This document shows, piece after piece, positions 2,002-19,283 of a stretch of DNA of 19,283 bases (position 1 is the stretch's first letter; each line of letters opens with the position of its first letter). The notes under the pieces are model-generated. The model saw only the letters and a program-made list of their open reading frames with translations. It had not been told where the DNA came from and did not search any database. The stretch covers positions 145,395-164,677 of the forward strand of contig NW_013657640.1 in assembly GCF_000142905.1 (NCBI RefSeq), read 5' to 3'. The translations under genes and the position numbers were made by a program. Source of the DNA: Thecamonas trahens ATCC 50062 (Eukaryota > Protista > Apusomonadida).

Positions 2002-4257
2002 ATGGCGGACCAGACACTGGGCATCTCGTTTGCGGCTGCAGAGCCCCTGGATGACTCGGACTCGGACGAAGGCGTCGTGGCGCATGTGGCTGACGAGGAC
2101 GACTCGTCGTCGGACCCGCTGTCGTCCGACGACGACGCTACCGAGTCGGACGACGGCGACGGCGGTGATGGCCGCGACGGCGACGGGAGCTCAGCAGTGC
2201 TCGGCATCTCGTTCTCGTCGGCCGCTGGTGGCGACGGCGACGGCGACGACGACGGTGGCGACGACGACGACGACGACGGGCTGCCGGACTCGGACGCCGA
2301 CGATTCGGACGAGGAGCTGTCGGACGATTCGTACGACGAGGACGGCCTGGTGCTTGTGCTCAAGTACGGGGCGCACGGGCTGACCGGGCGGCGCAAGACG
2401 ATGGAGGACGCGCACTTTGCAGCGGTGCAGGCGTCGCAAAAACTAGAGACGGCCGAGACGCAGGGCGGCCCTGCGGTGGGCTTTTTCTCAGTCTTTGACG
2501 GCCACGGCGGCGACGCGTGCGCGCTGTATCTCTCACAGAACATGTTCCCCGCAGTGTTGGAGACGATGCCCGAGCTGGCGATCCGGACCAAGGAGGTTGA
2601 CCCGGAGAGCCTCCCGTCGCAGGCCGAGGAGCTGCAGGCGATGGAGACCAGTCTCCGCGAAGCGTACGCGCTCGCCGAGTCGCGGTTCATCTCGCTTGCC
2701 GAGAGCAAAAACGTTGATTCAGGTGCGACAGCCGTCTCTGCCCTCATTCATGGCAACAAGCTCGTGGTTGCCAACGTTGGCGACTCTGAGGCTGTGCTCT
2801 CGCGTGATGGCATGCCTGTCAACCTGACAGTCATCCACAACCCGGCCAAGAACCCGGCCGAGGAGGAGCGAATTGTGGCTGCCGGCGGGCGGGTGTACAA
2901 GAAGCGGGTGGCGCTACCGTCGGTCCCGCCGCACCTGTGCAACATTGCAGTCTCGCGGGCGTTTGGCGATATCCTGTTCAAAAACACGCCTGACGGGACA
3001 GCGTCGGGGCTGACGGCGGATCCGGACGCAGCCACGTGGCTCATTGAGCCGCAGGATGAGTTTCTCATTTTGGCATGCGATGGGGTGTGGGACGTGATGA
3101 CACACGAGGAGGCTGTCGACGAGGTGTCATCGAGCCTTGCGGCGTCGCAGTACGACCCGCAGGCTGCTGTTGAGTGCCTGGTCAAGGCGGCGTACGCGCG
3201 CGGCTCGACCGACAACATCACTGCGCTGGTGGTGCTCTTCGAGTTTGTGCCCGAGGAGGACCTTCTTGAGCTGCTGGAGGACGACCCGAGCCCGCCGCTG
3301 GCGCTGGATGTCAACGGCGAGCCCGCGAGTACCGAGTTTGAAGGCAAGGTGAGCGAGCTGCAGGCGCTCGGTAACGGGTTCTCACCGGTCGCGCCGGTCC
3401 ACCAGACCGGGACTATCAAGCTTATGCCGCGGACGGCGGCGGGCCCGTCGACGCCGACCGCAGGCGGATCGGGCATTACCTTTGCGGCCACGGGAGCAGG
3501 CTCGGACTCTGACGACGGTGTCTCGCCGTTTGGCGTCGACTCGGACGAGTCGGGCTCTGACGACGAGTGGGACGAGAAGGCGCTGTGGCCGGGCAAGCTC
3601 GCGGCTTACACCGAAGAGACACCACTCAACGGTGCGCAGCGCAACGTGCCGGGCACCAAGCGCGACGAACTGTTTGCATGGAAGGCCGCGCCGCTCGAGG
3701 AGCAGACCGGCTCGCTTGAAGTCCAGCAGTACCTGCAGCAGCTGATCCGGAGCGACCCCGCAGACGTGGACAAGATTGTGGAGACGCCCGAGGGCGTGTC
3801 GTCGGTGGTGTGGCAGTACGAGCACCTGCGCCAGCTGACACTCGAGCTCTCGCATCTGGCAGTCATGCTGGAAGAGTGCGGGTGCTCGCCCGAGTCGTGC
3901 CCCAAGATGAAGGCGACTCAAGAGTGGATGTTCCTCTGCGCAGCCCACAAGGAGCCGCAGGAGTGCTCCGCCATCGACTACATGTGCCACACGCTCGAGG
4001 GCGCCGCCGCGCTGCTCAACTCGCAAAAGTACTTCCCCTCGCGCATCAACCTCAAGGAGGCCGACGCCAAGCCGAACCTCCAGTCGGTCGCCCGCCGCCT
4101 CTATCGTATCTGCGCCCACGCCTTCTTTGCCCATAACGACGCCTTTGAGGAGTTTGAAGCCGAGACGCACACTACCGAGCGCGCCGTCAAGCTCGCTGCC
4201 CGCTACAAGCTTGTTGGCCGCAAGATGCGCATCATCCCGCCTGTCGAGGAGTGGTAA
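2002..4257 (+). CDS. PP2C (PPM) phosphatase fused to a MOB4/phocein (Mob1-family) domain
   Basis: A continuous ORF runs from 1678 with no internal stop. The first ATG after the upstream poly-C tract is at 2002 (MADQTLG); the stop is TAA at 4255-4257. The N-terminal region is rich in acidic D, S and G residues. PP2C motifs at about 2347-3246: RRKTMEDAH, FFSVFDGHGG, VANVGDSEAVLS, IAVSRAFGD, LILACDGVWDV, GSTDNITALVV. The C-terminal ~215 aa match MOB4/phocein almost motif for motif: RNVPGTK..F.W, VQQYLQQLIR.D..DVDKIVE.PEG...VWQYEHLRQ..LEL..LAV.LEEC, C..MKATQEWMFLCAAHK.PQECSAIDY..HTLEGAA.LLNS.KYFPSR, RRLYRI.AHA.F.H.D.FEEFE.ET. Confidence 0.8.
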   Translation: MADQTLGISFAAAEPLDDSDSDEGVVAHVADEDDSSSDPLSSDDDATESDDGDGGDGRDGDGSSAVLGISFSSAAGGDGDGDDDGGDDDDDDGLPDSDADDSDEELSDDSYDEDGLVLVLKYGAHGLTGRRKTMEDAHFAAVQASQKLETAETQGGPAVGFFSVFDGHGGDACALYLSQNMFPAVLETMPELAIRTKEVDPESLPSQAEELQAMETSLREAYALAESRFISLAESKNVDSGATAVSALIHGNKLVVANVGDSEAVLSRDGMPVNLTVIHNPAKNPAEEERIVAAGGRVYKKRVALPSVPPHLCNIAVSRAFGDILFKNTPDGTASGLTADPDAATWLIEPQDEFLILACDGVWDVMTHEEAVDEVSSSLAASQYDPQAAVECLVKAAYARGSTDNITALVVLFEFVPEEDLLELLEDDPSPPLALDVNGEPASTEFEGKVSELQALGNGFSPVAPVHQTGTIKLMPRTAAGPSTPTAGGSGITFAATGAGSDSDDGVSPFGVDSDESGSDDEWDEKALWPGKLAAYTEETPLNGAQRNVPGTKRDELFAWKAAPLEEQTGSLEVQQYLQQLIRSDPADVDKIVETPEGVSSVVWQYEHLRQLTLELSHLAVMLEECGCSPESCPKMKATQEWMFLCAAHKEPQECSAIDYMCHTLEGAAALLNSQKYFPSRINLKEADAKPNLQSVARRLYRICAHAFFAHNDAFEEFEAETHTTERAVKLAARYKLVGRKMRIIPPVEEW
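2347..3246 (+). other. PP2C catalytic domain segment of the fusion ORF
   Basis: Extends from DGLVLVLKYGAHGLTGRRKTMEDAH to STDNITALVVLFEF. The conserved Asp-rich metal-binding motifs are intact. Confidence 0.8.
3640..4254 (+). other. MOB4/phocein (Mob1/phocein family) domain segment of the fusion ORF
   Basis: Residue pattern RN.PGTK...F.W...VQQY.QQ.IR.D....DKI.E.PEG....W.YEHLRQ..LEL..LAV.L..EC...C..M.AT..W.FLCAAHK.P.EC.AIDY..HTL.GAA.LLNS.KYFPSR matches phocein across its whole length. Confidence 0.75.
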
Positions 4258-5112: not shown

Positions 5113-5378
5113 CTGCAGTATCCAGCCGCGATACCGTTACCGTGTTGTTGTGTCGCACCCCGGCTGTCTGTCAGTGGCGAGCCGTCTCTTCTACCCGCCC
5201 CCCCTCCCCCCCTCCCCTCCCCTCTGCGCCCTACCTACCAACCTTCTGCCCACCGCTATCCCACGACAATGCCCACGGCCACCGCCCCCCATCCCCCTCC
5301 CCCCCCCCCTCGCCCCTCCCTCCCTCCCCCTCCCCCCCCCCCCCCCCCCCCCCCACCCCTCCCCCACCCTCAACCTAC
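5113..5378 (-). other. Spliceosomal intron of the PP4c gene (GTAGGT...CTGCAG), 266 nt
   Basis: The consensus donor and acceptor bracket a frame-preserving join. The intron is almost entirely a CT-rich tract on the + strand (GA- and G-rich on the transcript) and includes a C23 homopolymer at 5332-5354. Confidence 0.75.
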
Positions 5379-5682: not shown

Positions 5683-8310
5683 CTACTGACCCTGCTCCGA
5701 GACGGCAAGCGCAGAGCCGACAAGGCCGTTGGCGGTGTTGAACAGGTTGACCGGCGAGTTGCCGTCGGTGAGGAGGACAGACGAAAGGCCGAGCGAGCCC
5801 AGGAGCTTGGCCTGCATCTCGGGCCCGGCCTTGGCAATGTCCTTGATGACCTCGGGCGTGATGGCCTCGATCATGGCCTTGAACTTGCCGGTCTCGATCT
5901 CGGTCAGCTGGGCCTTCTTGTCGAGCTCGAGCTTGTTGAGTGCGGCGACGTGGGTGAGCTCGGCGGCGTAGTGGGCCTGCAGCCGCTTGAGCTCAAAGGC
6001 AGCCTCGACGTCTGCGGCGTCTGCACGGAGCTGGGCCTGCTCGACACTGGCCTCGCACTCGATGACGGTGGTGGTGGCCTGGGCCTTGGCCTCGGCCTTG
6101 GCCTTGCCCGTCGTCTTGATCGACTCGCACTCGGCCTGCAGCCGGAGAAGCTCGATCTTGGCAGCCTCGGAGAGGCACGAGTCGCGGATGCGGAGCTGCT
6201 CGAGCTCGCCAAGCGCGTCCTGCTCCTCTCGCTTGGCGACGTTGCGCGCCCGCGCTTCGAGCGCGTCGGTGGTGATCTCGATGGCGAGCGAGACCGACTT
6301 TTGCAGCGAGTCCCGCGTCCGCTGGTCCACGGGGTCAACGTTCTGGATGTCGACGTTGGTGATGACAAGGCCGTTGGCCGGAAAGACCCGCTCGTCGCAG
6401 ACCGAGCCATTGTCGTCGAGGCCAAAGACGGCTGCGCGGATGATACGTGCCGAGTTGGCGTGGAACTCCTGGAACGGAATCGAAGCCACCGTGCCGCGGA
6501 TTGACGAGCCGAGCGCCTTGCACGCGTCGCCCACAAAGTCGGCAACCGAGAAGATCTTGCGGGTCGAATCCTCCGTCGACCGGTCGACACGGAACTCCCA
6601 GTTGTACCCGAGCTGAAGCGAGAGGCGTGCATGGTCCGACGTCTCCACCACGATGACGTCGATCATAAAGTCCGGGCCAAGGTAGAGGAGCAGCGACTTG
6701 ATGGCGTTCGACTGCTTCGGCCGCCCGCCCGAGAGCGAGAAGACCGTGAGGTGCTCATTCGGCTGGAGAAGCACCAGCTCTGGGCCAAACACCACCCGGG
6801 CATCCTTGGTCTTGTAGTCAAAGATCTGGACCGCTGCGTTGTGCGGGACACGGTAGGTGACAACCCGCCACTTTTCGCGCCGCTGCATGCCTGTCAGGCC
6901 AGCCGCCCGCGAGCCGGTCGACGCAAGGTTGAGGATCGTCGACTGCAGGCCCGGCGTGCGGCTTGCAGACGAGGAGAACAGCACGTTTGAGCCGGCAGCA
7001 AGCTCGACCGGGGTGTCGGTGAACGGCGTCTCACCGTTGATGAGCGCCTCCATGTCGGCAGGCAGCTCCTTCTCCCACAGCTCCTCGTCGGCCTGCAGCA
7101 TGTACGACGCGCCGATCTCGGCGCGCACCTTGCCGGTCGTCATGTTGCGGACGTACACGCCCTCGTTCTTGTCGAGCGGAATGAGCCACCGCTGCGCCGC
7201 CACACTGCATTGCGGTGCTGGGTAGTAGTCGCGCGGCCCAAAGACCATCCACCGCTCACCCGGCTCCCGCGCCACGCCCTCGTCGTCCACGTACGCCTCG
7301 ACACACCGCAGCACTAGCGCGTCCTGCTTCGACAGCAGGTGCGCCGTCTGCTTGCCGGCAAGCAGCCGCTCGCCGGGCTGCAGGAAGAACGTCTTGGGCC
7401 CTCGGACCATGGTCTTGGTTCCCAGCACGTTCTTGCCGGTCGACGCGTCCACAGGATCCACAATGACGCAGTAGTCGGTGTTTGAGAGCGAGATCGCCGT
7501 CACAGGCGTCACCAGCTGCTCAAAGACCCCGAGCATGTGCGTCGGCGCCTCGGCAAGCGTCACCAGCCACTCGTCGCCGACCTTGCGCTCGATGCCGTAG
7601 ACATCGGTGAAGGCTTGCGTTGCGCGCAGGTGAAGGCCCGTCGTCTCGGTCAGGACATGCAGCTCCTGCACCTCGACAAGCTCCTCCGTTACCCGGCACA
7701 GGTATCGCCCCGGCTGCCGCACAATCCACTCGGAGCCAGCAAGCCGCGCCGTTCCATCCGGCTCGGTAAAGTCCTCCGTCGCCCGCAGCCGCAGCGCCTG
7801 GGTCTCGAGCACCACTACAGAGTGCACCTCCTCCAGCACCGTCACCACCCGCGACGGCAGATACGTCCGCGGGCCCTTGACCAGCCACTGCTCGCCCGCA
7901 GCACGCGTCACCCCACCCTCGTCCTTCACCTCGCGCTCCGCACGCACCCGCAGCGCAGCGCCGTCCTCAATCACGCGCAGCGGCGTCACGCCCAGCACAA
8001 GTGCCTCGCCCGGGTACAGCGGGAACGGGTCCGGAAAGTCGGCCGCAAGCCGCACCTCCTCGTCACCCCACACGCACACGTAAACCCCGTGCTCGTCAAT
8101 CACAGGCTGCCCGGCGTCATCACGCTCCACAGGATTGGCCACCACGCAGTACGACGCCGGCGGCAGGACAATCATCGCCAGCGGGCCATCCACCACGGTC
8201 TCATGTGCCTTCTTGGTGAACGTCGCTGGGCCAACCACCAGCCGCTGCACATTCGTGTTGTTGTCCTCCACCGTCACATACGAATACGGCCGGATGCGAA
8301 TGAGCGACAC
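5683..8310 (-). CDS. MVP: Major vault protein (MVP), apparently intronless
   Basis: The 875-aa ORF is collinear with metazoan MVP from [19 protein letters not shown] through the repeats (GDEWLV, ALRLRA.E.F.D..G..R..G.EWL, FFLQPGE) and the shoulder ([54 protein letters not shown]). It continues through the A/E/K/Q-rich cap helix to [26 protein letters not shown]. Stop is at 5683-5685. The codon at 8310 is GTG, not ATG, and an in-frame TGA lies two codons upstream. The true initiator is therefore probably in a short upstream exon or is non-AUG. Confidence 0.88.
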
Positions 8311-8344
8311 TACTCACGACCACCCACAACACAGTCTGCTTCGT

Positions 8345-8900
8345 GAGTTCATTGCCTTGCTCCCTCCTTCCCTCTCTGTCCCTTTCCCCCGTCCCTTTCC
8401 CCCTTCCCTTTCCCGCCCCCCCCCCCCCCCCCCTTTTGTTTTTCTGCGCCACCAATGGAAAGAAAAATCATCCGAGTGGAACAAGGAAGAAAGCCACCTT
8501 CCCCTCCCCGTCCTTCCCTCCACAGCACAGGCACCTCCCCACCCCCACCCCCCCCCAACGCCCACCCCCCTCTCCCCCTTCCCCTCCCCTTCCCTCCCCT
8601 CCCCCACTCACACCGTACTCTTGTTGCGGGTTGGTGAGACGGATGGTGCTCACCCCCACTCTCACCGCCTCACCCTCCTGCCTGCCCGTCTCCACTTCGG
8701 CCAGCCCCGATCGATCACCCGCCACCACCAGCCAGCCAGCCAGCCAGCCAACCGGAAGACGACCAAACCCCAAACCCACAGGTCTTTCCTTTTCCCTTGA
8801 CACATTGCCTGGCGGGTGGACCACAAAGTCACCACCCCACCCCCCACCCCGCCTTCCCCCCCCTCCCTCCTCCCTCCCCCCCCCCCCTTCCCAAGTGGGC
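8345..8900. repeat. CT- and C-rich divergent spacer between MVP (-) and the arrestin-kinase gene (+)
   Basis: The spacer contains several CCCTYCC(C) runs, a C18 run at 8416-8433, a C12 run at 8876-8887 and a (GCCA)6 microsatellite at 8727-8752. Confidence 0.7.
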
Positions 8901-8905
8901 GCATC

Positions 8906-11826
8906 ATGTCTGTTGCCATCCGCATCGAGCTGGATAAGCCGTCAGGATTTACCTCGGCGGTGAGGCCGTCCATGGTGTGGTGGTGGTGGACTGCTCAGCA
9001 CGTGCCGACGCTACGGCCTTCAAGAGCCTCGAGCTGGCGGTCCACTCGGCGGAGCATGTCGAGTGGCAGCGCCAGGAGATGCAGAAGGTTGCCATCGATC
9101 CGTTTGGCCATGGCCACAACCACAGTCATCATCATTCCCACCGCAGCCACAGCCACGGCCACGGCCACCACTCCCACTCTCGCAGCGACAGTGGCTACGG
9201 CGGCGACCGGTTTGTCATCACCCACTCGGGCGGGCAGACCCAGATGGTGATTGAGGATGGAGCAGCTTCGCATGGCTCGTCACACTACGGATCGACCGTC
9301 TGCGAGCCGGGCTACGAGATGCGCCAGGTGACCGTGACTGTCAGCGACTCGGCGCCGGTCGTCACCCTCCGCATCGCACTCGATGCCAAGGGCGGCTCAT
9401 TCGACTCACATGGCGTCTATCACTTTCCGTTTGCCTTTGCCCTTCCAGTCGATACCCAGGGCTCGCTGGAGGTGCCACAGGGCGGGACTGGGACGCCCAT
9501 CACCGGCTCGGTCCGCTACTGGCTCAAGGCCATGCTCACCCGCAAGGGTCTCAAGTTTAACGTAGGCTCGCCACAGCGCGACTTTGTTGTCGCACCGCTC
9601 TTCACCTCGGTTGTTGCCCGGCCCAAGGCGTTGCCTCGCAGCCGGTTGCCGGCGGTGGCGCCTACACTGCCACCCTCTCGCTTGATCGCAATGCTGCTGT
9701 CCCGGGCGAGACCGTTATGGCTCATCTCCACGTCGCCAACAACTCGCCCATGCCCATCTCCTCGGTCACCTTTCAGATTGTCCAGACCATCTCGGGAACA
9801 CGCCGCTCGCCGCCCGAGTCGGGCCAAAAGTCGCTGGTCATTTTCACCTCGTCGCGTCCAGGTGCACAGCCGTACACTCCCCTCACCATCGAGATCGGCA
9901 TCCCGCTGCCGCCGGCATTGTGGGCGACCGTCACCGGCCCGCTCCTCCGCAACGAATACGCCGTTGTCGCTGTCATCCATCCGGCGTCTGGGCCTGACGT
10001 CCATGCCGGTGTCGGCCTCTCGGTTCTCGCTCCGAACGCGCTTGACGGCGGCGCGCTTAAGGCTACCCCTTTGGCACTCCGCTCCGCCTCATCGCCGCCA
10101 AGGCACCGCCGTCAGTTGTCCTCGCTCCGCCACCGGGCGTCGACCCGCTGCCGCTCGACGGCACCGTCCTGCCAGAACGCAAAGTCGGCCTCAAGTCGTG
10201 GCACATGTACTTTATCGACGTTCCCGCCCTCACTCACGAGGCCCGCCTCGAAATCGTTCTTCGTGGAACGTCCAAGGCCACGCTGGCCCTTCGCCTTCGC
10301 AAAGCCTCGCAACCCTCTCATTTGACCTCGTACGACTTTGCCGGCACCAAGGCCGGCAAGCACGTCTACTCGATCGCCATCAACAAGAACAACGGCGTGC
10401 CGCTCCAGCAGGGCCGCTGGTTTGTTGGCGTCTGGGGTACAAACGTCTTCCCACCCTCCTCCAAATATGTTCTCTCCGCCACACTCACTGGTGCCGCTCC
10501 GCCGCCGCCGCCTGCTGCGCTTCCGGAGCGAAGGTCATCGCTAGAGTTGGAGTCTGGCGGCGCATCGTCGTCGGCTGCGCCGTCCACCTCACCGGTCGTT
10601 GCCGACGAAACGCCGCCCCTCCCGCCGTTATCCGGGAATCCGAGAAGTCTGCTACCGCCTCAGCTTCAGCACCGCCGCCGCCGTCGTTTCACGATCCCAA
10701 CTATGCCTCACTCGCGTCGGTGGCTTTGGCGGGATCTGCGTACGCTGCGCCGCCTCCAGAGCCCGGAGCAGGCTCGGCAAGTAGTGTCGAGTCGTCGGCG
10801 GCCGATGGTGCCGGAGTTGCCGACGGCGCCGACGACAACAGCTCGTACAGCATTGCGGCCAGCGAGCTGCAGCGCGGCGAGTTGGTCGGATCAGGCGCGT
10901 TTGGAGTGGTCCATCGCGGTACCTGGCGCGGCGGCGACGTGGCCATCAAGACCATCAAGGTCGATTCGTTGGCTTCCGACGCCGTGGCAGAGTTCAAGGC
11001 CGAGGCCAAGCTCATGCGCCTCCTCCCACCACACCCCAATGTTGTCCAGTTTCTCGGGGTGTGCAAGGCCGGCGAGAACGAGCTCTGCATCGTCTCTTCG
11101 TTTGTGCCTGGCGGCACCCTCCTCGCTCTCCTCCATCCAACCTCGGGCTTTGTGTGGAACGTCGAGAAGAAGCTTGGCGTGGCAGTCGGCATTGCCGCCG
11201 GCCTCCTGCATCTCTCAGCCGAGTCGATTGTCCACCGCGATCTTGCCGCCCGCAACATCCTTGTCTCGGTCGGCGGCCATGGCCCGGCAGCCACAGTCAC
11301 GCCACTCCTCACCGACTTTGGCATGAGCCGCGACGCGTCAGGCGCCGGCGACAACTACACCGCGTCCGTTGTCGGCCCGGTCAAGTGGATGGCGGTCGAG
11401 GCCATCACACATCGCAAGTACTCGGCCAAGTCGGACGTCTGGTCGTTCGGCGTGCTTCTCTTTGAGATCTTCACCCAAACTGAGCCGTACGCCGGCCTCA
11501 CTCCGCTGCAGGTTGCAGCCGGTGTCTCCAGTGGCTCACTCACCCTCGACCTCGATGGCCACGCAGCTGACATCCCTCCGCCCGTCGTTGATCTCATTCA
11601 AGCCTGTATGGCCCACGAGCCCGAAGACCGACCCTCAGTTCGTGACCTGTTCCGCACCGTCTCGCACCTCCGCACTCAACTCAGCCCAACGCCCAGGCCT
11701 ATCAGCTATGCCACTGTCAACCCGTTTGCCCCATCGTCGTCGGCGTCGTCGTCCCCGGCCGCAACCCCGACACAGACCGCAACCTCAGGCCCGGCCTTTG
11801 CCTACTCGGAGAATCTGGGTGGATAA
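8906..11826 (+). CDS. Arrestin-fold (N+C) / beta-sandwich / TKL protein kinase multidomain gene, reading frame broken in four places (possible pseudogene or assembly indels)
   Basis: ATG at 8906 opens MSVAIRIELDKP (arrestin-N-like start) in frame 2. From 8938 frame 1 continues arrestin-N: VRIYLGGEAVHGVVVVDCS...GVYHFPFAFALPVDTQGSLEV...GSVRYWLKAMLTRKGLKFNVGSPQRDFVVAPLF. An arrestin-C domain sits in frame 3 at about 9640-10060: GGGAYTATLSLDRNAAVPGETVMAHLHVANNSPMPISSVTFQIVQTI...LLRNEYAVVAVIHP. A beta-sandwich (PPC/P-domain-like) domain sits in frame 2 at 10061 to about 10560: LPLDGTVLPERKVGLKSWHMYFIDVPALTHEARLEIVLRG...GKHVYSIAI...GRWFVGVWGT...YVLSATL. The kinase is back in frame 1 at about 10864-11685: GSGAFGVV, VAIKTIK, HRDLAARN, DFG, PVKWMAVE. 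Stop is TAA at 11824-11826. The listed 949-aa ORF at 8977..11826 stays open only because frame 1 has no stop; its middle 350 codons are an R/S/P-rich off-frame translation. Confidence 0.6.
10864..11685 (+). other. Protein kinase catalytic domain (tyrosine-kinase-like, TKL) of the arrestin-kinase gene
   Basis: Gly loop LVGSGAFGVVHRG, VAIK lysine, HRDLAARN catalytic loop, DFG and PVKWMAVE (APE-like) are all present. The domain appears catalytically competent. Confidence 0.85.
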
Positions 11827-13261: not shown

Positions 13262-13480
13262 CAGATGGTACTACCCTCCTCCATCCGTCCGCCCGTCCGT
13301 TCCATCCGTCCGTCATCCATCCCTCACCAGCCCATGAGTCCCATCCCTCCCCTCCCCTGACCCCCTTCCCCAGGTCACATGGCCGTCACTGCGGGCGTGG
13401 ATGCTACGTCGCCGCTTCCCCTCCCCCTTCCCCCTCCCCTCCCCTCCCCTCCCCTCCCCTCCATCTCCCGCATCCCCTTA
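13262..13480. repeat. C-rich (ccatccgtcc)n and (cccctc)n tracts upstream of the nucleoside transporter
   Basis: ccatccgtccgcccgtccgttccatccgtccgtcatccatccc is followed by cccctcccctcccctcccctcccctcc at 13420-13460. A G11 run lies on the + strand at 13695-13705, further along the same divergent spacer. Confidence 0.65.
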
Positions 13481-14059
13481 CCTTGTCACGTGGCGCCTTG
13501 CGCAAAAGGGGCTGGCCAGCCTTTCCGTCCTCCTCGCCATGGAGGCGCTCATACGACTTGCCCATGTGGCCGTGGCAACGGAGAGGTGGGGCAAAGGGAG
13601 GTACGGCTGGTGATGGCACCGCTTTCGCCAGAGCCATTGCCGATGGACGACCAGCCGGTGAAAGGCGGCCAGTGGCAGGGGAGGGGGAGGGGAAGGGGGG
13701 GGGGGAGGAAGGCAGTTGCTGTGTGATGGATGATGAATGGTATGATCGACGGGGAGAGTGGCATCATACAGATGCTGTCGATGTCGATGATCGTCTCTGG
13801 GGACTCATCGCACCATGCACACCCCCGGGATGGAATAATCATCGGTGGGGGTGCTGGACATGTGATGATCGTTCCATGTGCAGGCTCTGGGACGTGTGTT
13901 GATCGACCACCGGGGGAGGGTGATGGCTGTGGTTGAGCCGCGTGTGGCGGGAAGGCCGTGCACTCTCGTCGCCGGCGGGGCGGGCCTTGGCCGGGTGCCA
14001 TTGGGCCAGCCACCTGACTCGGACTCGGCGGTAGCAGGGCGGGCCTGGGCGGGGCGGGC

Positions 14060-15397
14060 ATGGACGAGCTTGATTCGAGTGCCACCGACAATGACGAGGT
14101 GAGGCTGCTGGCCGGGGACTGGGGACTGCTAGACGGTGACTCGAGTAGTGGCGGTGTGCATGGCGAGGCCGACGTGGCGAGGAAGCCGCCGCCGCCTCTG
14201 GACTCGCCGCCGCCTGCTGCCCAACCATCGCCTGATGCCCGGCCGCCACCACCTCCGGACTCACCGCCGCCTGATGCCCAATCATCGCCTGATGCCCGGC
14301 CGCCACCACCTCCGGACTCGCCGCCACCTGCTGTCCAACCATCGCCGCCTCCGGACTCACCGCCGCCTAATGCCCGGCCGCCACCTCCTCCGGACTCGCC
14401 GCCGCCTGATGCCCAATCATCGCCTGATGCCCGGCCGCCACCTCCTCCGGACTCGCCGCCACCTGCTGTCCAACCATCGCCGCCTCCGAACTCACCGCCG
14501 CCTAATGCCCGGCCGCCACCTCCTCCGGACTCGCCGCCGCCTGATGCCCAATCATCGCCTGATGCCCGGCCGCCACCTCCTCCGGACTCACCGCCGCCTG
14601 CTGTCCAACCATCGCCGCCTCCGGACTCACCGCCGCCTGATGCCCGGCCGCCACCTCCTCCGGACTCGCCGCCGCCTGTTGCCCAATCATCGTCGCCTCC
14701 GGACTCGCCGCCGCCTGATGCCCAATCATCGCCTGATGCCCGGCCGCCACCTCCTCCGGACTCGCCGCCACCTGCTGTCCAACCATCGCCGCCTCCGAAC
14801 TCGCCGCCGTCTGATGCCCGGCCGCCACCTCCTCCGGACTCGCCGCCACCTGCTGTCCAACCATCGCCGCCTCCGGACTCACCGCCGCCTAATGCCCGGC
14901 CGCCACCTCCTCCGGACTCGCCGCCGCCTGATGCCCAATCATCGCCTGATGCCCGGCCGCCACCTCCTCCGGACTCGCCGCCACCTGCTGTCCAACCATC
15001 GCCGCCTCCGAACTCGCCGCCGTCTGATGCCCGGCCGCCACCACCTTCGGACTCGCCGCCGCCTGCTGCCCAACCATCGCCTGATGCCCGGTCGCCACCT
15101 CCTCCGGACTCACCGCCGCCTGCTGTCCAACCATCGCCGCCTCCGGACTCACCGCCGCCTGATGCCCGGCCGCCACCTCCTCCGGACTCGCCGCCGCCTG
15201 TTGCCCAATCATCGTCGCCTCCGGACTCGCCGCCGCCTGATGCCCAATCATCGCCTGATGCCCGGCCGCCACCTCCTCCGGACTCGCCGCCACCTGCTGT
15301 CCAACCATCGCCGCCTCCGAACTCGCCGCCGTCTGATGCCCGGCCGCCACCACCTCCGGACTCGCCGCCGCCTGCTGAACTCACCGCCGCCTGATGC
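14060..15397 (+). CDS. Proline-rich tandem-repeat protein, N-terminal part (frame 2) ending at a TGA created by a 20-nt deletion in one repeat unit
   Basis: ATG at 14060 opens MDELDSSATDNDEVRLLAGDWGLLDGDSSSGGVHGEADVARK. Repeat units follow: DAQSSP / DARPPPPPDSPPP / AVQPSPPPDSPPP / NARPPPPPDSPPP. Frame 2 ends ..SPPPAELTAA* at 15395-15397. There, gctg|aactcaccgcc lacks the canonical tccaaccatcgccgcctccg. Confidence 0.55.
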
Positions 15398-15672
15398 CCG
15401 GCCGCCACCTCCTCCGGACTCGCCGCCACCTGCTGTCCAACCATCGCCGCCTCCGAACTCACCGCCGCCTGTTGAACAAGCATCGCCGCCTCCGAACTCG
15501 CCGCCGCCTGATGCCCGGCCGCCACCACCTCCGGACTCGCCGCCGCCTGTTGCCCAACCATCGCCTGATGCCCGGCCGATACCACCTCCGGACTCACCGC
15601 CGCCTGTTGCCCAATCATCGCCTGATGCCCGGCTGCCAATGCCCGGCTGCCACCTCCTCCGGACTCGCCGCC
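14184..15672 (+). repeat. Coding tandem repeat with higher-order structure: 39/18-nt subunits forming 135-nt units, with nested duplications up to about 520 nt
   Basis: The gatgcccaatcatcgcct landmark recurs at 14273, 14408 and 14543 (135-nt spacing). It then recurs at 14718, 14930 and 15239. The gttgcccaatcatcgtcgcct variant recurs at about 14680 and 15200, a spacing near 520 nt. On the + strand the units translate as PPPPDSPPP-type repeats; the minus strand gives GGGESGGG. Confidence 0.85.
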
Positions 15673-17449
15673 GCCTGCTGCCGCTGCCCGCCTGTACAAA
15701 ATTGTGGCTGAAGAGGTCACCCAAGAACTCGCTGACGCCACCATTGACGCTGTCACTACCGAATTGTCCCACAACATCACCCGCGATGTGCTGCTCGTCG
15801 CTGACGCCTCTTCAGTCGTCGAAGATCTTGTCACCGACGCTGCCGCCGCTGTGGCTGCCGCCGTCCATTCTTCGGCCGTCAACGAGGCCAACGCGGCCGC
15901 TGAGATTGTGGACAATGTGATTACAGATGGAGTCGCTGTATTGCTCTCCATGCTTGCTGCAGAAGCTGTATCTGAACACGCTGCCGCTCTGGACGCCGCT
16001 CTGGACACCGTTATTGCTGACCTTGCTGCAGACGTCATCGATCATGATAGTTCACTCGTCGCCGCCGCTGCCCTTGACCACGCTCGCGATGTCGACGCCG
16101 CCAGCCATGGACTCGCTGATGAGATCTTTGATGCTGCGGTGACGACTGCACTTCTTGCCAGCGCTGAGCACGCGCTGGACGTTGATCTTGCCGGGCGCGA
16201 GGTTGTTGACGAGCTCGTCGATGGCGTCTGTGCCATTGTCGCTGACGCCGCCCTGCACCACGAGCGCCTTATCGAGGCCGCATTCGCCGAGCTCGTGGAG
16301 CAGCTTACTGATGATCTCGGCCTTGAGGCGGGAATGGAGGCCTGGGATGAGCTAGTCTTTGAAGACGCCGTTGACTGCTGTGTATCGGAGCTCACGGATG
16401 ACTTTTCGGCCTTCCTCGCCTTTGACACCTACATCATGCAGGAGGCCATTGAGGCCGGGACCCAGGAGTGCTATGCCGAGTATGTGGGCGAGGTCACTGC
16501 CTTCTGTGCAGCTGACATTCTGCTTTACGAGCGCGCTCTTCATGCCGCGCTGGTTGAAGAGCTGCAGCTGTGGACCGACGATCTTGCGCTCGAGGTGGCG
16601 TCGGACGTTGTCACCGACGCACTCATTGTGGCCATGCCGCTGATGGAGCCACAGCTTCCGCGGACCACGCACTATACCCCAGCTATCCAGGCTCAGCTGG
16701 CGGCATTTGCCGAGTGGACCGGCGCCGTCCGCGCCCTTCTCCCCAAGATCGATGCTGGTCTCGACGCCGAGCTCGCGGTTGCTGCCGCCTGGCCACCACC
16801 GCCAGAGCTACACCTCGCGCACGATGGCATTGCCCTCGTTGGTCCTGCGCCCGACGAGCCTGGCGACCTCGCGCTGGTTGTGCTCACCGAGCCCGAGCCC
16901 GCCACGCTCGCCGCCGCCGCGCCTCTTGCGCTCGCCTGCATCCCGCGACTTGCCCGCTCAGGCGTTGTCCCTCCACGCTGCTCCATCGTTGCGCACGTTT
17001 CTATCTCTGCTGCATCTGCTGCGCTTCACTACGCGCTGCAGCCGTCGGTCCGCGCCGCCTGCGCCGCCCTCTCCGACGCACTCGAGCACGAGCCGTACGA
17101 TGTTGCTCGCGCTGCCGACGCCCTCGAACTGCCACAGCTCTACGTTTTGGCTATGGCCTTTACGTACAACACCCTTGACTCACTGGCGTCGATGCTCGAC
17201 GAGCTCGGTACCTCGTTTATGATGCGCCTCTCGCCGCGAGCATGGCGCAAAGTCGACCGCGCGCTTGCGGGCAAGCCTCGGGACACGCCTTCGCTGCCGG
17301 CGCAAAAGACAGTCATGGACCTGCTCTGGTTCCTTCGCACGACTGCGTTGGTGCCAATCCGCCTCAACTACCAGTCTGCAGCCTCGCGCTGGCGCATCGA
17401 GTACGCACGCGCGGCCGTGGCAGCGCCTGGTGCATCGGCTCCGCTGTAA
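15626..17449 (+). CDS. C-terminal part of the same gene: final repeat units plus an acidic A/D/E/L-rich helical domain of unknown family (frame 2)
   Basis: Frame 2 reopens at 15626: ..NARLPPPPDSPPPAAAARLYKIVAEEVTQELADATIDAV... It runs 600 codons to TAA at 17447-17449. The domain has a complex protein-like composition (FLAFDTYIMQEAIEAGTQECYAEYVGEVTAFCAADILLYERALHAALVEELQLW...). Between 15398 and 15625 the repeat is readable only in frame 3. I recognise no conserved domain. Confidence 0.55.
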   Translation, partial: CPAANARLPPPPDSPPPAAAARLYKIVAEEVTQELADATIDAVTTELSHNITRDVLLVADASSVVEDLVTDAAAAVAAAVHSSAVNEANAAAEIVDNVITDGVAVLLSMLAAEAVSEHAAALDAALDTVIADLAADVIDHDSSLVAAAALDHARDVDAASHGLADEIFDAAVTTALLASAEHALDVDLAGREVVDELVDGVCAIVADAALHHERLIEAAFAELVEQLTDDLGLEAGMEAWDELVFEDAVDCCVSELTDDFSAFLAFDTYIMQEAIEAGTQECYAEYVGEVTAFCAADILLYERALHAALVEELQLWTDDLALEVASDVVTDALIVAMPLMEPQLPRTTHYTPAIQAQLAAFAEWTGAVRALLPKIDAGLDAELAVAAAWPPPPELHLAHDGIALVGPAPDEPGDLALVVLTEPEPATLAAAAPLALACIPRLARSGVVPPRCSIVAHVSISAASAALHYALQPSVRAACAALSDALEHEPYDVARAADALELPQLYVLAMAFTYNTLDSLASMLDELGTSFMMRLSPRAWRKVDRALAGKPRDTPSLPAQKTVMDLLWFLRTTALVPIRLNYQSAASRWRIEYARAAVAAPGASAPL

Positions 17450-17459
17450 CACCTCGGCG

Positions 17460-19073
17460 TCAGAGCTCGTCGCCGGGCGCAAAGGAGTTGTGTCCGTCCG
17501 ACGAGCACGACGAGCACGAGCCGGCTCCCCGCCGCCCACCAGGCTCCAGCACCGCCAGTGCGTCGGGCGTAAACAGATCGTCGCCGAGCATGTGGTGGTA
17601 CCGGCTGGAGCCGCGCCTGTGGTACCAGTACCCGCCACCAGCAACGCACCCAATCACGCCGCACACCAGCAGCAGGATGATAGCCACCGTGCCGGCATCT
17701 GTCGGCCCGGCCGCAGGCGCCGGGCTCGGCGACGAGGCTGTCTCCCGCCCGCATGCCGCGTCCCAATCGTCGTAGAATGAATCACGAGTAGCGTCGAGGA
17801 ACGCGTCCAGCGGTACGATGCACGCGTCGCTCCGGGTGTCCAGCGCCACGCTCGCGGCGCTGACGCAGATGCCGCCGGAAAAGACCAGCGGGGCGTCATT
17901 GTAAAACGCCGAGACGTACGCCGCCCCAGTATCGGTTATGTGCAGCTCAAAGACGACTGACGAGGCGTACGGCGGAATGCCACCGGCTTCGGTGACTGGA
18001 AGCGCTGCCAGGAGCGACGCCAGCGTTGTGTCGTGGGCAGAGAGCAGGTAGAACTTGCGGAGGTCGGCGGGCAGCTCGCCAGGGCCGATCGACGGCGATG
18101 GCGAGGCTGTAAAGCCCTCGGAAGCAGCGGCCGGCGGTGGCGGCGGCGGCGCCACGTAGGCCTGGAACAAGTCGCGGAGAGTGGCCACCATGTTGCCACC
18201 AGCCAGCTTGCCGGCCTTGTCGTGCGAAAAGGTATGAGCCGTGACCCAGTCGGCCGTGGCAATGATGTCGTCGAGCATCGGGAGCGTGACCTTGCCGTTG
18301 AGCAGCGGCTTGCCGTGCGACCACGCACAGAAGAGTGGGTCGTAGATCAGGTACCACTTGCCGAGCGTCACCTCTTCGCCGGCGAGCTCAGCCAGCGTCT
18401 CGGCCAGCGTTGCCACGTCCGCAGCCTTGGCCACAAACTCTGGCGAGCTCTGGCGCGCCTTCTCCAGTGCGTCAAACTCGGGACAGTTGTTGTACCCGCG
18501 GAGCAGCGTGTCGTAGACCACCGGTCGCGAGTGGATCGGCACGTACTGCACCCGCTCCGGCGAGTCGGCCGGGCCGGTCCCGGCCGGGAAGAGCCCGGCT
18601 AGCAGCGCCTGCGCCGACTGGATGGTCCGATCGACAGCGGTGGCACGGGCGTAGACGTCAAAGACCGAGTACGTCTCCATGGCTAGCAGCGCCGAGTAGT
18701 TGGCCCTTAGCCGCTGGCCCAGCGCCACGTGCTGCGCCATGCCGCGCCCGGTCAGCTGACCGCGGCCCTGCGGCCACTCATTGTCATCCTCGGGCAGCGC
18801 ATGGACCGGCGTCCGGTCGCCATGCCGGGTGAAGACCACCACCGCCTGCAGCGTACCAGGCCGAGCCCCTGCCGCCCGCTTGCCCACCCGTCCGCCCCAA
18901 TGCGGTCCTCCAGCCTCGTCGGCCAGTCCGCCGTCCCACCAGCCGCCGACCTCCTCGTCGGCTCCCACCGCAGTCACCACCAACGCCACCACCACCACCG
19001 CCAGCACCAACACCACCACCACCCCAGCCACCCCATGTCCTGGACCATCCGTCCGTCTGCGGGCACTTGCCAT
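17460..19073 (-). CDS. Histidine acid phosphatase (lysosomal/prostatic acid phosphatase-like), type I membrane topology
   Basis: ATG at 19073-19071 (MASARRRTDGPGHG) is followed by a hydrophobic VAGVVVVLVLAVVVVALVVTAV. The RHGxRxP signature is present (VVVFTRHGDRTP), as is the proton-donor motif LLSAHDTTLASLL. A C-terminal TM segment (TVAIILLLVCGVIGCVAGGGYWY) is followed by a short tail ending ..SFAPGDEL. Stop is TGA at 17462-17460. The listed ORF runs on to 19265, but that upstream part is a repeat-derived read-through. Confidence 0.85.
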   Translation of the reverse strand: MASARRRTDGPGHGVAGVVVVLVLAVVVVALVVTAVGADEEVGGWWDGGLADEAGGPHWGGRVGKRAAGARPGTLQAVVVFTRHGDRTPVHALPEDDNEWPQGRGQLTGRGMAQHVALGQRLRANYSALLAMETYSVFDVYARATAVDRTIQSAQALLAGLFPAGTGPADSPERVQYVPIHSRPVVYDTLLRGYNNCPEFDALEKARQSSPEFVAKAADVATLAETLAELAGEEVTLGKWYLIYDPLFCAWSHGKPLLNGKVTLPMLDDIIATADWVTAHTFSHDKAGKLAGGNMVATLRDLFQAYVAPPPPPPAAASEGFTASPSPSIGPGELPADLRKFYLLSAHDTTLASLLAALPVTEAGGIPPYASSVVFELHITDTGAAYVSAFYNDAPLVFSGGICVSAASVALDTRSDACIVPLDAFLDATRDSFYDDWDAACGRETASSPSPAPAAGPTDAGTVAIILLLVCGVIGCVAGGGYWYHRRGSSRYHHMLGDDLFTPDALAVLEPGGRRGAGSCSSCSSDGHNSFAPGDEL

Positions 19074-19115
19074 TCCAGACCAGTAGCGAGAGGAGTCGTG
19101 AAGAAGAGTCCACCA

Positions 19116-19181
19116 GGCAGGAAGGTAGCCAGGGAGGAAGGTAGCCAGGCAGGTGGGTAGCCTGGCAGGTGGGTAGCCACA
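19116..19181. repeat. Four degenerate tandem copies of a 16-nt motif, 45-110 nt upstream of the acid phosphatase ATG
   Basis: The copies are caggaaggtagccagg / gaggaaggtagccagg / caggtgggtagcctgg / caggtgggtagccac. Confidence 0.6.
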
Positions 19182-19283
19182 CCAGGCCACCCCGGTCATC
19201 CTACGCCCATCCACCCCATCCACCCACCCCCCCCACCCCATCCACCTACATTCCATTCCATCCACCCACCCCCACGAGATGCC

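Follow-up and report, generated by a model that had tools for sequence, protein, structure and literature searches.

A proline-rich tandem-repeat gene in Thecamonas trahens whose reading frame is broken by two local lesions, probably through sequence error or very recent slippage

Frame breaks within coding repeats are familiar from two settings. In draft eukaryotic assemblies, frameshift-type errors occur in G+C-rich coding repeats, and in the MUC1 variable number tandem repeat (VNTR) a slippage-generated frameshift allele of a coding repeat underlies the MUC1 form of autosomal dominant tubulointerstitial kidney disease (ADTKD-MUC1). The locus described here is a proline-rich repeat gene of Thecamonas trahens ATCC 50062, located in a stretch of 19,283 nucleotides (nt) of RefSeq assembly GCF_000142905.1 (contig NW_013657640.1, positions 145,395–164,677, forward strand); this whole stretch is referred to as the window, and positions are counted from its first letter. 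The locus resembles the draft-assembly errors in its G+C content of 72%, its near-identical higher-order repeats, its isolated changes of length not divisible by 3, its otherwise perfect downstream open reading frame (ORF) and the presence nearby of a gene with error-like breaks, but differs from them in that its lesions lie in locally unique sequence and look like clean slippage-type products rather than collapse junctions. As in MUC1, a G+C-rich coding minisatellite rich in Pro and Ser carries small indels that truncate the protein and that ordinary sequencing struggles to verify; unlike MUC1, there are two lesions of opposite phase, and they are in an orphan gene of a single-celled protist. 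The phenomenon is ordinary in kind: a repeat gene whose frame has been broken by error or by very recent slippage.

The gene is on the + strand and reads genomic frame 2 from ATG 14060, the sole ATG after a frame-2 stop at 14015. Its components, with an antisense ORF that overlaps them, are as follows.

14060–14185, + strand: acidic unique N-terminal head MDELDSSATDNDEVRLLAGDWGLLDGDSSSGGVHGEADVARK, 42 amino acids (aa)
14186–15376, + strand: proline-rich tandem array in genomic frame 2, units ending in [DN]AR
15376–15377, + strand: 20-nt deletion junction GCCTGCT/GAACTC, located by alignment to the upstream copy
15392–15394, + strand: first frame-2 TGA, closing a 444-aa ORF (14060–15394)
15377–15638, + strand: shifted zone of more diverged repeat units, with the proline motif in frame 0
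15625–15652, + strand: exact tandem duplication of the 14-nt sequence ATGCCCGGCTGCCA (Tandem Repeats Finder, TRF: period 14, 2.0 copies, 100%)
15653–15700, + strand: final repeat unit PPPPDSPPPAAAARLYK, read in frame 2 and leading without a break into the C-terminal ORF
15701–17449, + strand: C-terminal orphan region, stop TAA at 17447–17449
13549–16038, – strand: antisense ORF of 829 aa, a Gly-rich reading of the repeats, judged spurious

The array comprises ~20 units with lengths of 19, 26, 32 and 39 aa, and its G+C content of 72% compares with ~65% for the window, which is eukaryotic and has genes on both strands. The periodicities of 135 and ~520 nt proposed in the initial annotation are both present: TRF gives a 135-nt (45-aa) period over 14229–15622 with 10.5 copies, and self-identity by offset has maxima at 135 nt (0.71) and 522 nt (0.69). 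The longer period reflects two near-identical higher-order copies, ~14309–14830 and 14831–15352, which at an offset of 522 nt share exact runs of 185 nt (14309–14493) and 259 nt (14571–14829). At its 3' end, the orphan gene converges with a histidine acid phosphatase gene on the – strand, the two stop codons (TAA at 17447–17449 and 17460–17462) being separated by 10 nt.

Two lesions break the frame. The initial annotation had placed a unit lacking 20 nt near 15375–15395, and alignment to the upstream copy gives a clean 20-nt gap at 15376/15377: the segment GTCCAACCATCGCCGCCTCC, present in the canonical PPPAVQPSPPPNS unit, is missing between GCCTGCT and GAACTC. This deletion moves the proline frame from frame 2 to frame 0, and frame 2 of the shifted zone then contains five TGA codons, at 15392, 15473, 15509, 15566 and 15623. 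Translation from 14060 would end at the first of these, as had been predicted; the in-frame TGA is real, although its position is 15392–15394 rather than 15395. The second lesion had been described as a 14-nt partial duplication near 15631–15644. It is an exact tandem pair a few bases away, at 15625–15652; the 14-nt motif occurs in the window only at 15625 and 15639. The duplication puts the proline frame back into frame 2, and between the lesions that frame is indeed maintained in a shifted genomic frame. Frame 2 is open again from 15626 and runs without interruption into the C-terminal region as far as the TAA at 17447–17449, again as proposed. The lesions are ~262 nt apart, and their net effect on length is –6 nt. 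When both are undone in silico, with the 20 nt restored and one copy of the 14-mer taken out, a 3,396-nt ORF results that has 1,131 codons and is free of internal stops. In it the damaged unit reads as a canonical 26-aa PPPPPDSPPPAVQPSPPPNSPPPDAR unit, and the final unit as the canonical LPPPPDSPPP. The description of the locus as one gene broken by a –20/+14 pair with a net change of –6 nt is borne out; undoing just these two changes suffices. To call the pair compensating is misleading, because with five stops between the lesions the second rescues nothing in translation, and the cancellation of frame by two random frameshifting indels is not significant, its chance being ~1/2.

The k-mer CTGCTGAACTC that spans the deletion junction is unique in the window, and 31-mers are unique at 15345–15378 and from 15520 onward. 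The deletion joins near-repeats that are 21 nt apart, CGCCGCCTGCTG and CGCCGCCTCCG, and because these differ in length by one base, slippage between them would give –20. The variant GGCTGCCA, with a private C>T change, is confined to the two copies of the 14-nt duplication.

Coding potential was scored with a codon-usage log-odds table trained on six confident genes of the window, which themselves score ~0.55. The head and the 598 C-terminal codons show host-like codon usage in frame 2 only. For the head, + frame 2 scores best (0.195) and the other five frames are negative; for the C-terminal region, + frame 2 again outscores the other five frames, with 0.30 bits/codon, and each third is positive. 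Stops occur in the off-frames of the window genes at a density of ~1.5–1.7% per codon, and at ~1.6% an open frame of 598 codons is not a matter of chance (P roughly 1e-4). The possibility that the array is a non-coding C-rich minisatellite was rejected: the sub-periods of 18, 21, 39, 57, 78, 96, 135, 174 and 522 nt are every one divisible by 3, and so are the unit lengths. There is also an extremely small likelihood that the true gene is the uninterrupted – strand ORF of 829 aa at 13549–16038, encoding a Gly-rich repeat protein of which the + strand reading would be a mirror image. This ORF is the longest over the array and is open across both lesions, but long antisense ORFs are to be expected in coding DNA of high G+C content, and codon usage in its frame is negative in all of the unique flanks (–0.39 upstream, –0.17 under the head and –0.37 under the C-terminal ORF). 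Moreover, its first 110 codons lie opposite a + strand ORF that scores as coding, its repeat register likewise shifts at both lesions, and none of five start variants (0/5) was present in the protein collection.

The interpretation that we favor, with a probability of about 45%, is that the lesions are an artefact of sequencing or cloning. The locus would then be a single protein-coding gene of T. trahens, ancestrally and probably still in the organism one ORF of ~1,131 codons, whose intact product would comprise a short acidic head, ~20 proline-rich units and a lineage-specific acidic, helical C-terminal region. In the sequence as given, the frame of the gene is interrupted by exactly two local changes in length, both at the 3' edge of the array, where the units have diverged. 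The changes themselves would be draft-sequence errors, that is, low-coverage, clone or polymerase chain reaction (PCR) template-switch artefacts, or consensus artefacts in a G+C-rich repeat; the cell would make the full-length protein, and no biological mechanism would be involved. This reading is supported by the sufficiency of repairing just two lesions for recovery of the whole ORF and by the observation that all other length differences among the units are multiples of 3. The 598 downstream codons are open with host-like usage, which leaves no time for decay. The G+C content of 72% together with exact higher-order repeats of 185 and 259 nt makes the region hard to sequence and assemble, and with only ~262 nt between the lesions a single bad read or patch could explain both. 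Four apparent 1-nt breaks in an arrestin-kinase gene upstream, described below, tilt the balance towards local sequence error. Several observations weigh on the other side. Both lesions are in locally unique sequence, so that simple repeat collapse, which the initial annotation had put forward for the tandem array, does not account for both. Replication slippage in vivo classically yields exact tandem duplications and deletions between near-repeats, the errors in the neighboring gene are of a different class (1 nt, as against –20/+14), and elsewhere in the window ~11 kb of coding sequence is free of frame breaks. Protein databases and metagenome scans yielded no second, independent copy of the locus, and the sequencing technology of the assembly was not established from the literature, in which nothing usable was found on T. 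trahens intron statistics, frameshifts or the accession numbers of the neighboring genes.

It is almost as plausible that the lesions are real and very recent, slippage in a hypermutable repeat having produced the 20-nt deletion and, independently, the 14-nt duplication. The locus would then be a truncated allele or young pseudogene, encoding a 444-aa protein of head and proline repeats that ends in PPPAELTAA, with the C-terminal ORF untranslated. The lesions are of types typical of slippage in a locally unique context, and the 14-nt copies match each other at 100% identity and have a private C>T variant in common, which points to a recent event. The gene is an orphan without a detectable homologue and may be dispensable or fast-evolving, and neither half is matched by a T. 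trahens protein, as would fit annotators having met a broken locus. Such an origin nevertheless requires two independent lesions within 262 nt and none in the next 1.8 kb, the coding statistics of the downstream ORF are still intact, and the neighboring gene has frame breaks that look like errors; in addition, pseudogenes are uncommon in compact protist genomes, which also counts against it. There is, in addition, a very slender chance that the sequence is correct and that full-length protein is still produced, the 262-nt segment with its stops being removed as a non-canonical intron bounded by the lesions or bypassed through two recoding events; if true, such a bypass would be a new way to express a repeat gene across a frame-shifted block. 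Removal of the stop-containing segment by a spliceosomal intron, joining the frame-2 repeats to the frame-2 C-terminal ORF, is very unlikely. T. trahens does have introns, as the spliced product of the equilibrative nucleoside transporter (ENT) gene in the window is exactly KNC52394.1, and ten in-frame GT-AG combinations would remove all five stops; with many GT sites, however, in-frame pairs are expected by chance. There is a single AG (15479) in 14186–15711, and in each of the ten candidates the acceptor is GCTGAAGAG/G at 15715, with donors GCT/GTCCAA or CCT/GTTGCC and lengths of 417–1,383 nt. These sites (GTCCAA or GTTGCC as donor, GAAGAG as acceptor) are poor and unlike the verified ENT intron, AAG/GTAAGG...GGGTAG/T; the donor motifs recur all along the array, and the putative intron would be made of perfectly coding-like repeat units. 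The unconventional intron raised in the initial annotation is thus far not supported. Recoding appears the least probable of all. In the +1 programmed frameshifting of antizyme a sense codon is followed by UGA-U and a +1 slip reaches the productive frame, and a formally similar GCC-UGA-U is present at 15389–15395, where skipping the T of the TGA at 15392 would bring the ribosome into the proline frame, frame 0. Unlike the antizyme signal, the motif here is a by-product of the repeat, CCTGATG being an out-of-frame reading of the P-D-A-R codons found throughout the array, and a second, –1 event near 15639–15652 would be needed to return to frame 2, for which there is no slippery heptamer of the X XXY YYZ type near 15625–15652. 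We know of no precedent for two recoding events in one gene, and protein searches found no relatives in which conservation of a programmed frameshift could be seen.

The protein that an intact gene would encode has three compositionally distinct parts. The head is acidic (MDELDSSATDNDEVRLLAGDWGLLDGDSSSGG...) and, as judged by eye, has no hydrophobic stretch resembling a signal peptide. The repeats contain PPPPP and S-PPP motifs, with DSPPP, NSPPP and SPPPP in every unit, and the Tyr count of the repeat region is 0. These tandem Ser-Pro(3–5) motifs, with a probable polyproline-II structure and putative ligand sites, are like those of extensins and other wall proteins of the hydroxyproline-rich glycoprotein (HRGP) type, from which the product of this locus differs in the apparent lack of a signal peptide and in the lack of the Tyr cross-link motifs YXY and VYK. 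The PPPPP repeats also resemble the polyproline tracts of formin FH1 regions, but no FH2 or other Pfam domain follows on the C-terminal side. In the C-terminal region, the first ~330 aa are rich in Ala and have a strong excess of acidic residues (69 D/E as compared with 7 K/R), whereas the last ~268 aa have a balanced charge. Structure prediction, which had been suggested for this region, gave helical models with AlphaFold2 run without an alignment, but with predicted local distance difference test (pLDDT) values of 43 for the 598 aa and 41 for the last 268 aa these are not trustworthy; the region is predicted, with low confidence, to be nearly all helical. Motifs such as AAEIVDNVITDG prompted the idea of AKAP-like amphipathic helices (RIIa/DPY-30 docking), which was rejected by a shuffle control: the pattern [AVLISE]xx[AVLIF][AVLI]xx[AVLI][AVLIF]xx[AVLISE] has 12 matches in the first 330 aa as compared with 8.6 ± 3.4 in 2,000 shuffles, 358 of which reached 12. 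From composition, our guess would be a cytosolic scaffold with its polyproline tracts as putative ligand sites of the profilin, SH3, WW or EVH1 type.

The initial annotation recognized no known family in the C-terminal part, and the searches agree. The 598 aa contain no Pfam domain even at E ≤ 10, and a sequence search of the PDB returned noise only. Zero matches, self included, were obtained for the C-terminal 581 aa in a word-index search of 5.8 billion proteins and a HMMER scan of 1.84 billion representatives; among ~15 billion proteins, the domain has no detectable relative. The N-terminal 444 aa likewise gave zero matches in protein databases and no T. trahens self-match, and metagenome scans were empty both by protein and with a 25-nt exact DNA tag at the boundary between the array and the C-terminal region. 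The 598-aa region may be a new lineage-specific family of helical domains limited to apusomonads. Fifteen simple ORF models, covering both strands and several frames and starts at the locus, were looked up as exact sequences; none was present in the protein collection, from which neighboring genes were recovered by the same procedure. Given the absence of these models and of a self-match for either half, the deposited proteome seems to lack the locus, at least as read on this strand and in this frame.

Among the other genes of the window, two have features that are described by position.

8906–11826, + strand: arrestin-kinase gene, ~4 kb upstream of the proline-repeat gene
2002–4254, + strand: PP2C-Mob1 ORF, 751 aa, identical to KNC52390.1 ('protein phosphatase 2C')

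The sensible frame of the arrestin-kinase gene changes four times, from 2 to 1 at 8959, from 1 to 0 near 9624, from 0 to 2 near 10061 and from 2 to 1 near 10636. Each break is an apparent 1-nt loss in the same direction at a short G/C run; at the first (SA/GEAVHGVVVVD) there is no room for an intron, and each of the sensible segments has zero stops. Addition of one base per site yields a 974-aa protein with Arrestin_N, Arrestin_C and TK-like kinase domains, in which Arrestin_C, absent from the unrepaired ORF, appears with 39 bits and Arrestin_N rises to 36 bits. The frame-1 ORF of this gene is open for 949 codons regardless. The four losses are either sequence errors or the marks of a pseudogene, and in a gene that is otherwise sound they look like sequence error.

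KNC52390.1, the exact copy of the PP2C-Mob1 ORF, combines a PP2C domain with a Mob1/phocein domain at its C-terminus; the joining of a phosphatase to a kinase co-activator in one protein is unusual. The window also encodes the major vault protein (MVP; KNC52392.1, 100% identity) and the 435-aa ENT, which equals KNC52394.1 exactly after removal of a 211-nt intron, GTAAGG...GGGTAG. These three exact matches to deposited proteins agree with the T. trahens ATCC 50062 origin of the window. At 8308–8620 on the – strand, the annotated start of MVP is M-SLIRIR where the genome reads GTG TCG CTC; possible explanations are a G-rich 5' intron of ~300 nt (A/GTACGG...GAGTAG/TG) that interrupts the start codon and a start that was forced by the annotators. 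Two further ORFs had no exact copy in the protein collection: a purple acid phosphatase (70–1587, + strand, 505 aa), which looks intact, and the histidine phosphatase (17460–19265, – strand), for which several starts were tried. Their deposited models probably differ in start or introns. Long low-complexity tracts rich in C or G, among them an almost pure C run of 85 nt and (TCCCC)n, are present in intergenic or intron DNA at 5285–5371, 8378–8414, 8840–8892, 13417–13462 and 13677–13712; that at 13417–13462 lies inside the verified ENT intron and reads (GGGGA)n on the coding strand. Metagenome proteins from ENA (P0002/P0123), on short contigs, include an MVP with 73% identity and an ENT from the same 90%-identity cluster as that of T. 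trahens. They point to an organism closely related to Thecamonas that is yet to be sampled, and from which no homologue of the orphan domain was found.

The value of the locus is mainly curatorial: it is an apparently unannotated gene of ~3.4 kb, and it carries a warning about the quality of this part of the assembly. Its orphan C-terminal domain is of modest interest as a lineage-specific protein, its function not being indicated by the absence of relatives. If the lesions are real, the locus would be a clean case of a coding minisatellite inactivating its own gene through slippage. T. trahens is the only long-standing apusomonad reference genome, and apusomonads are used to root studies of the origin of animals and fungi. 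Together with the arrestin-kinase gene, this locus illustrates that frame-breaking lesions in the assembly can hide or distort gene models in comparative work.

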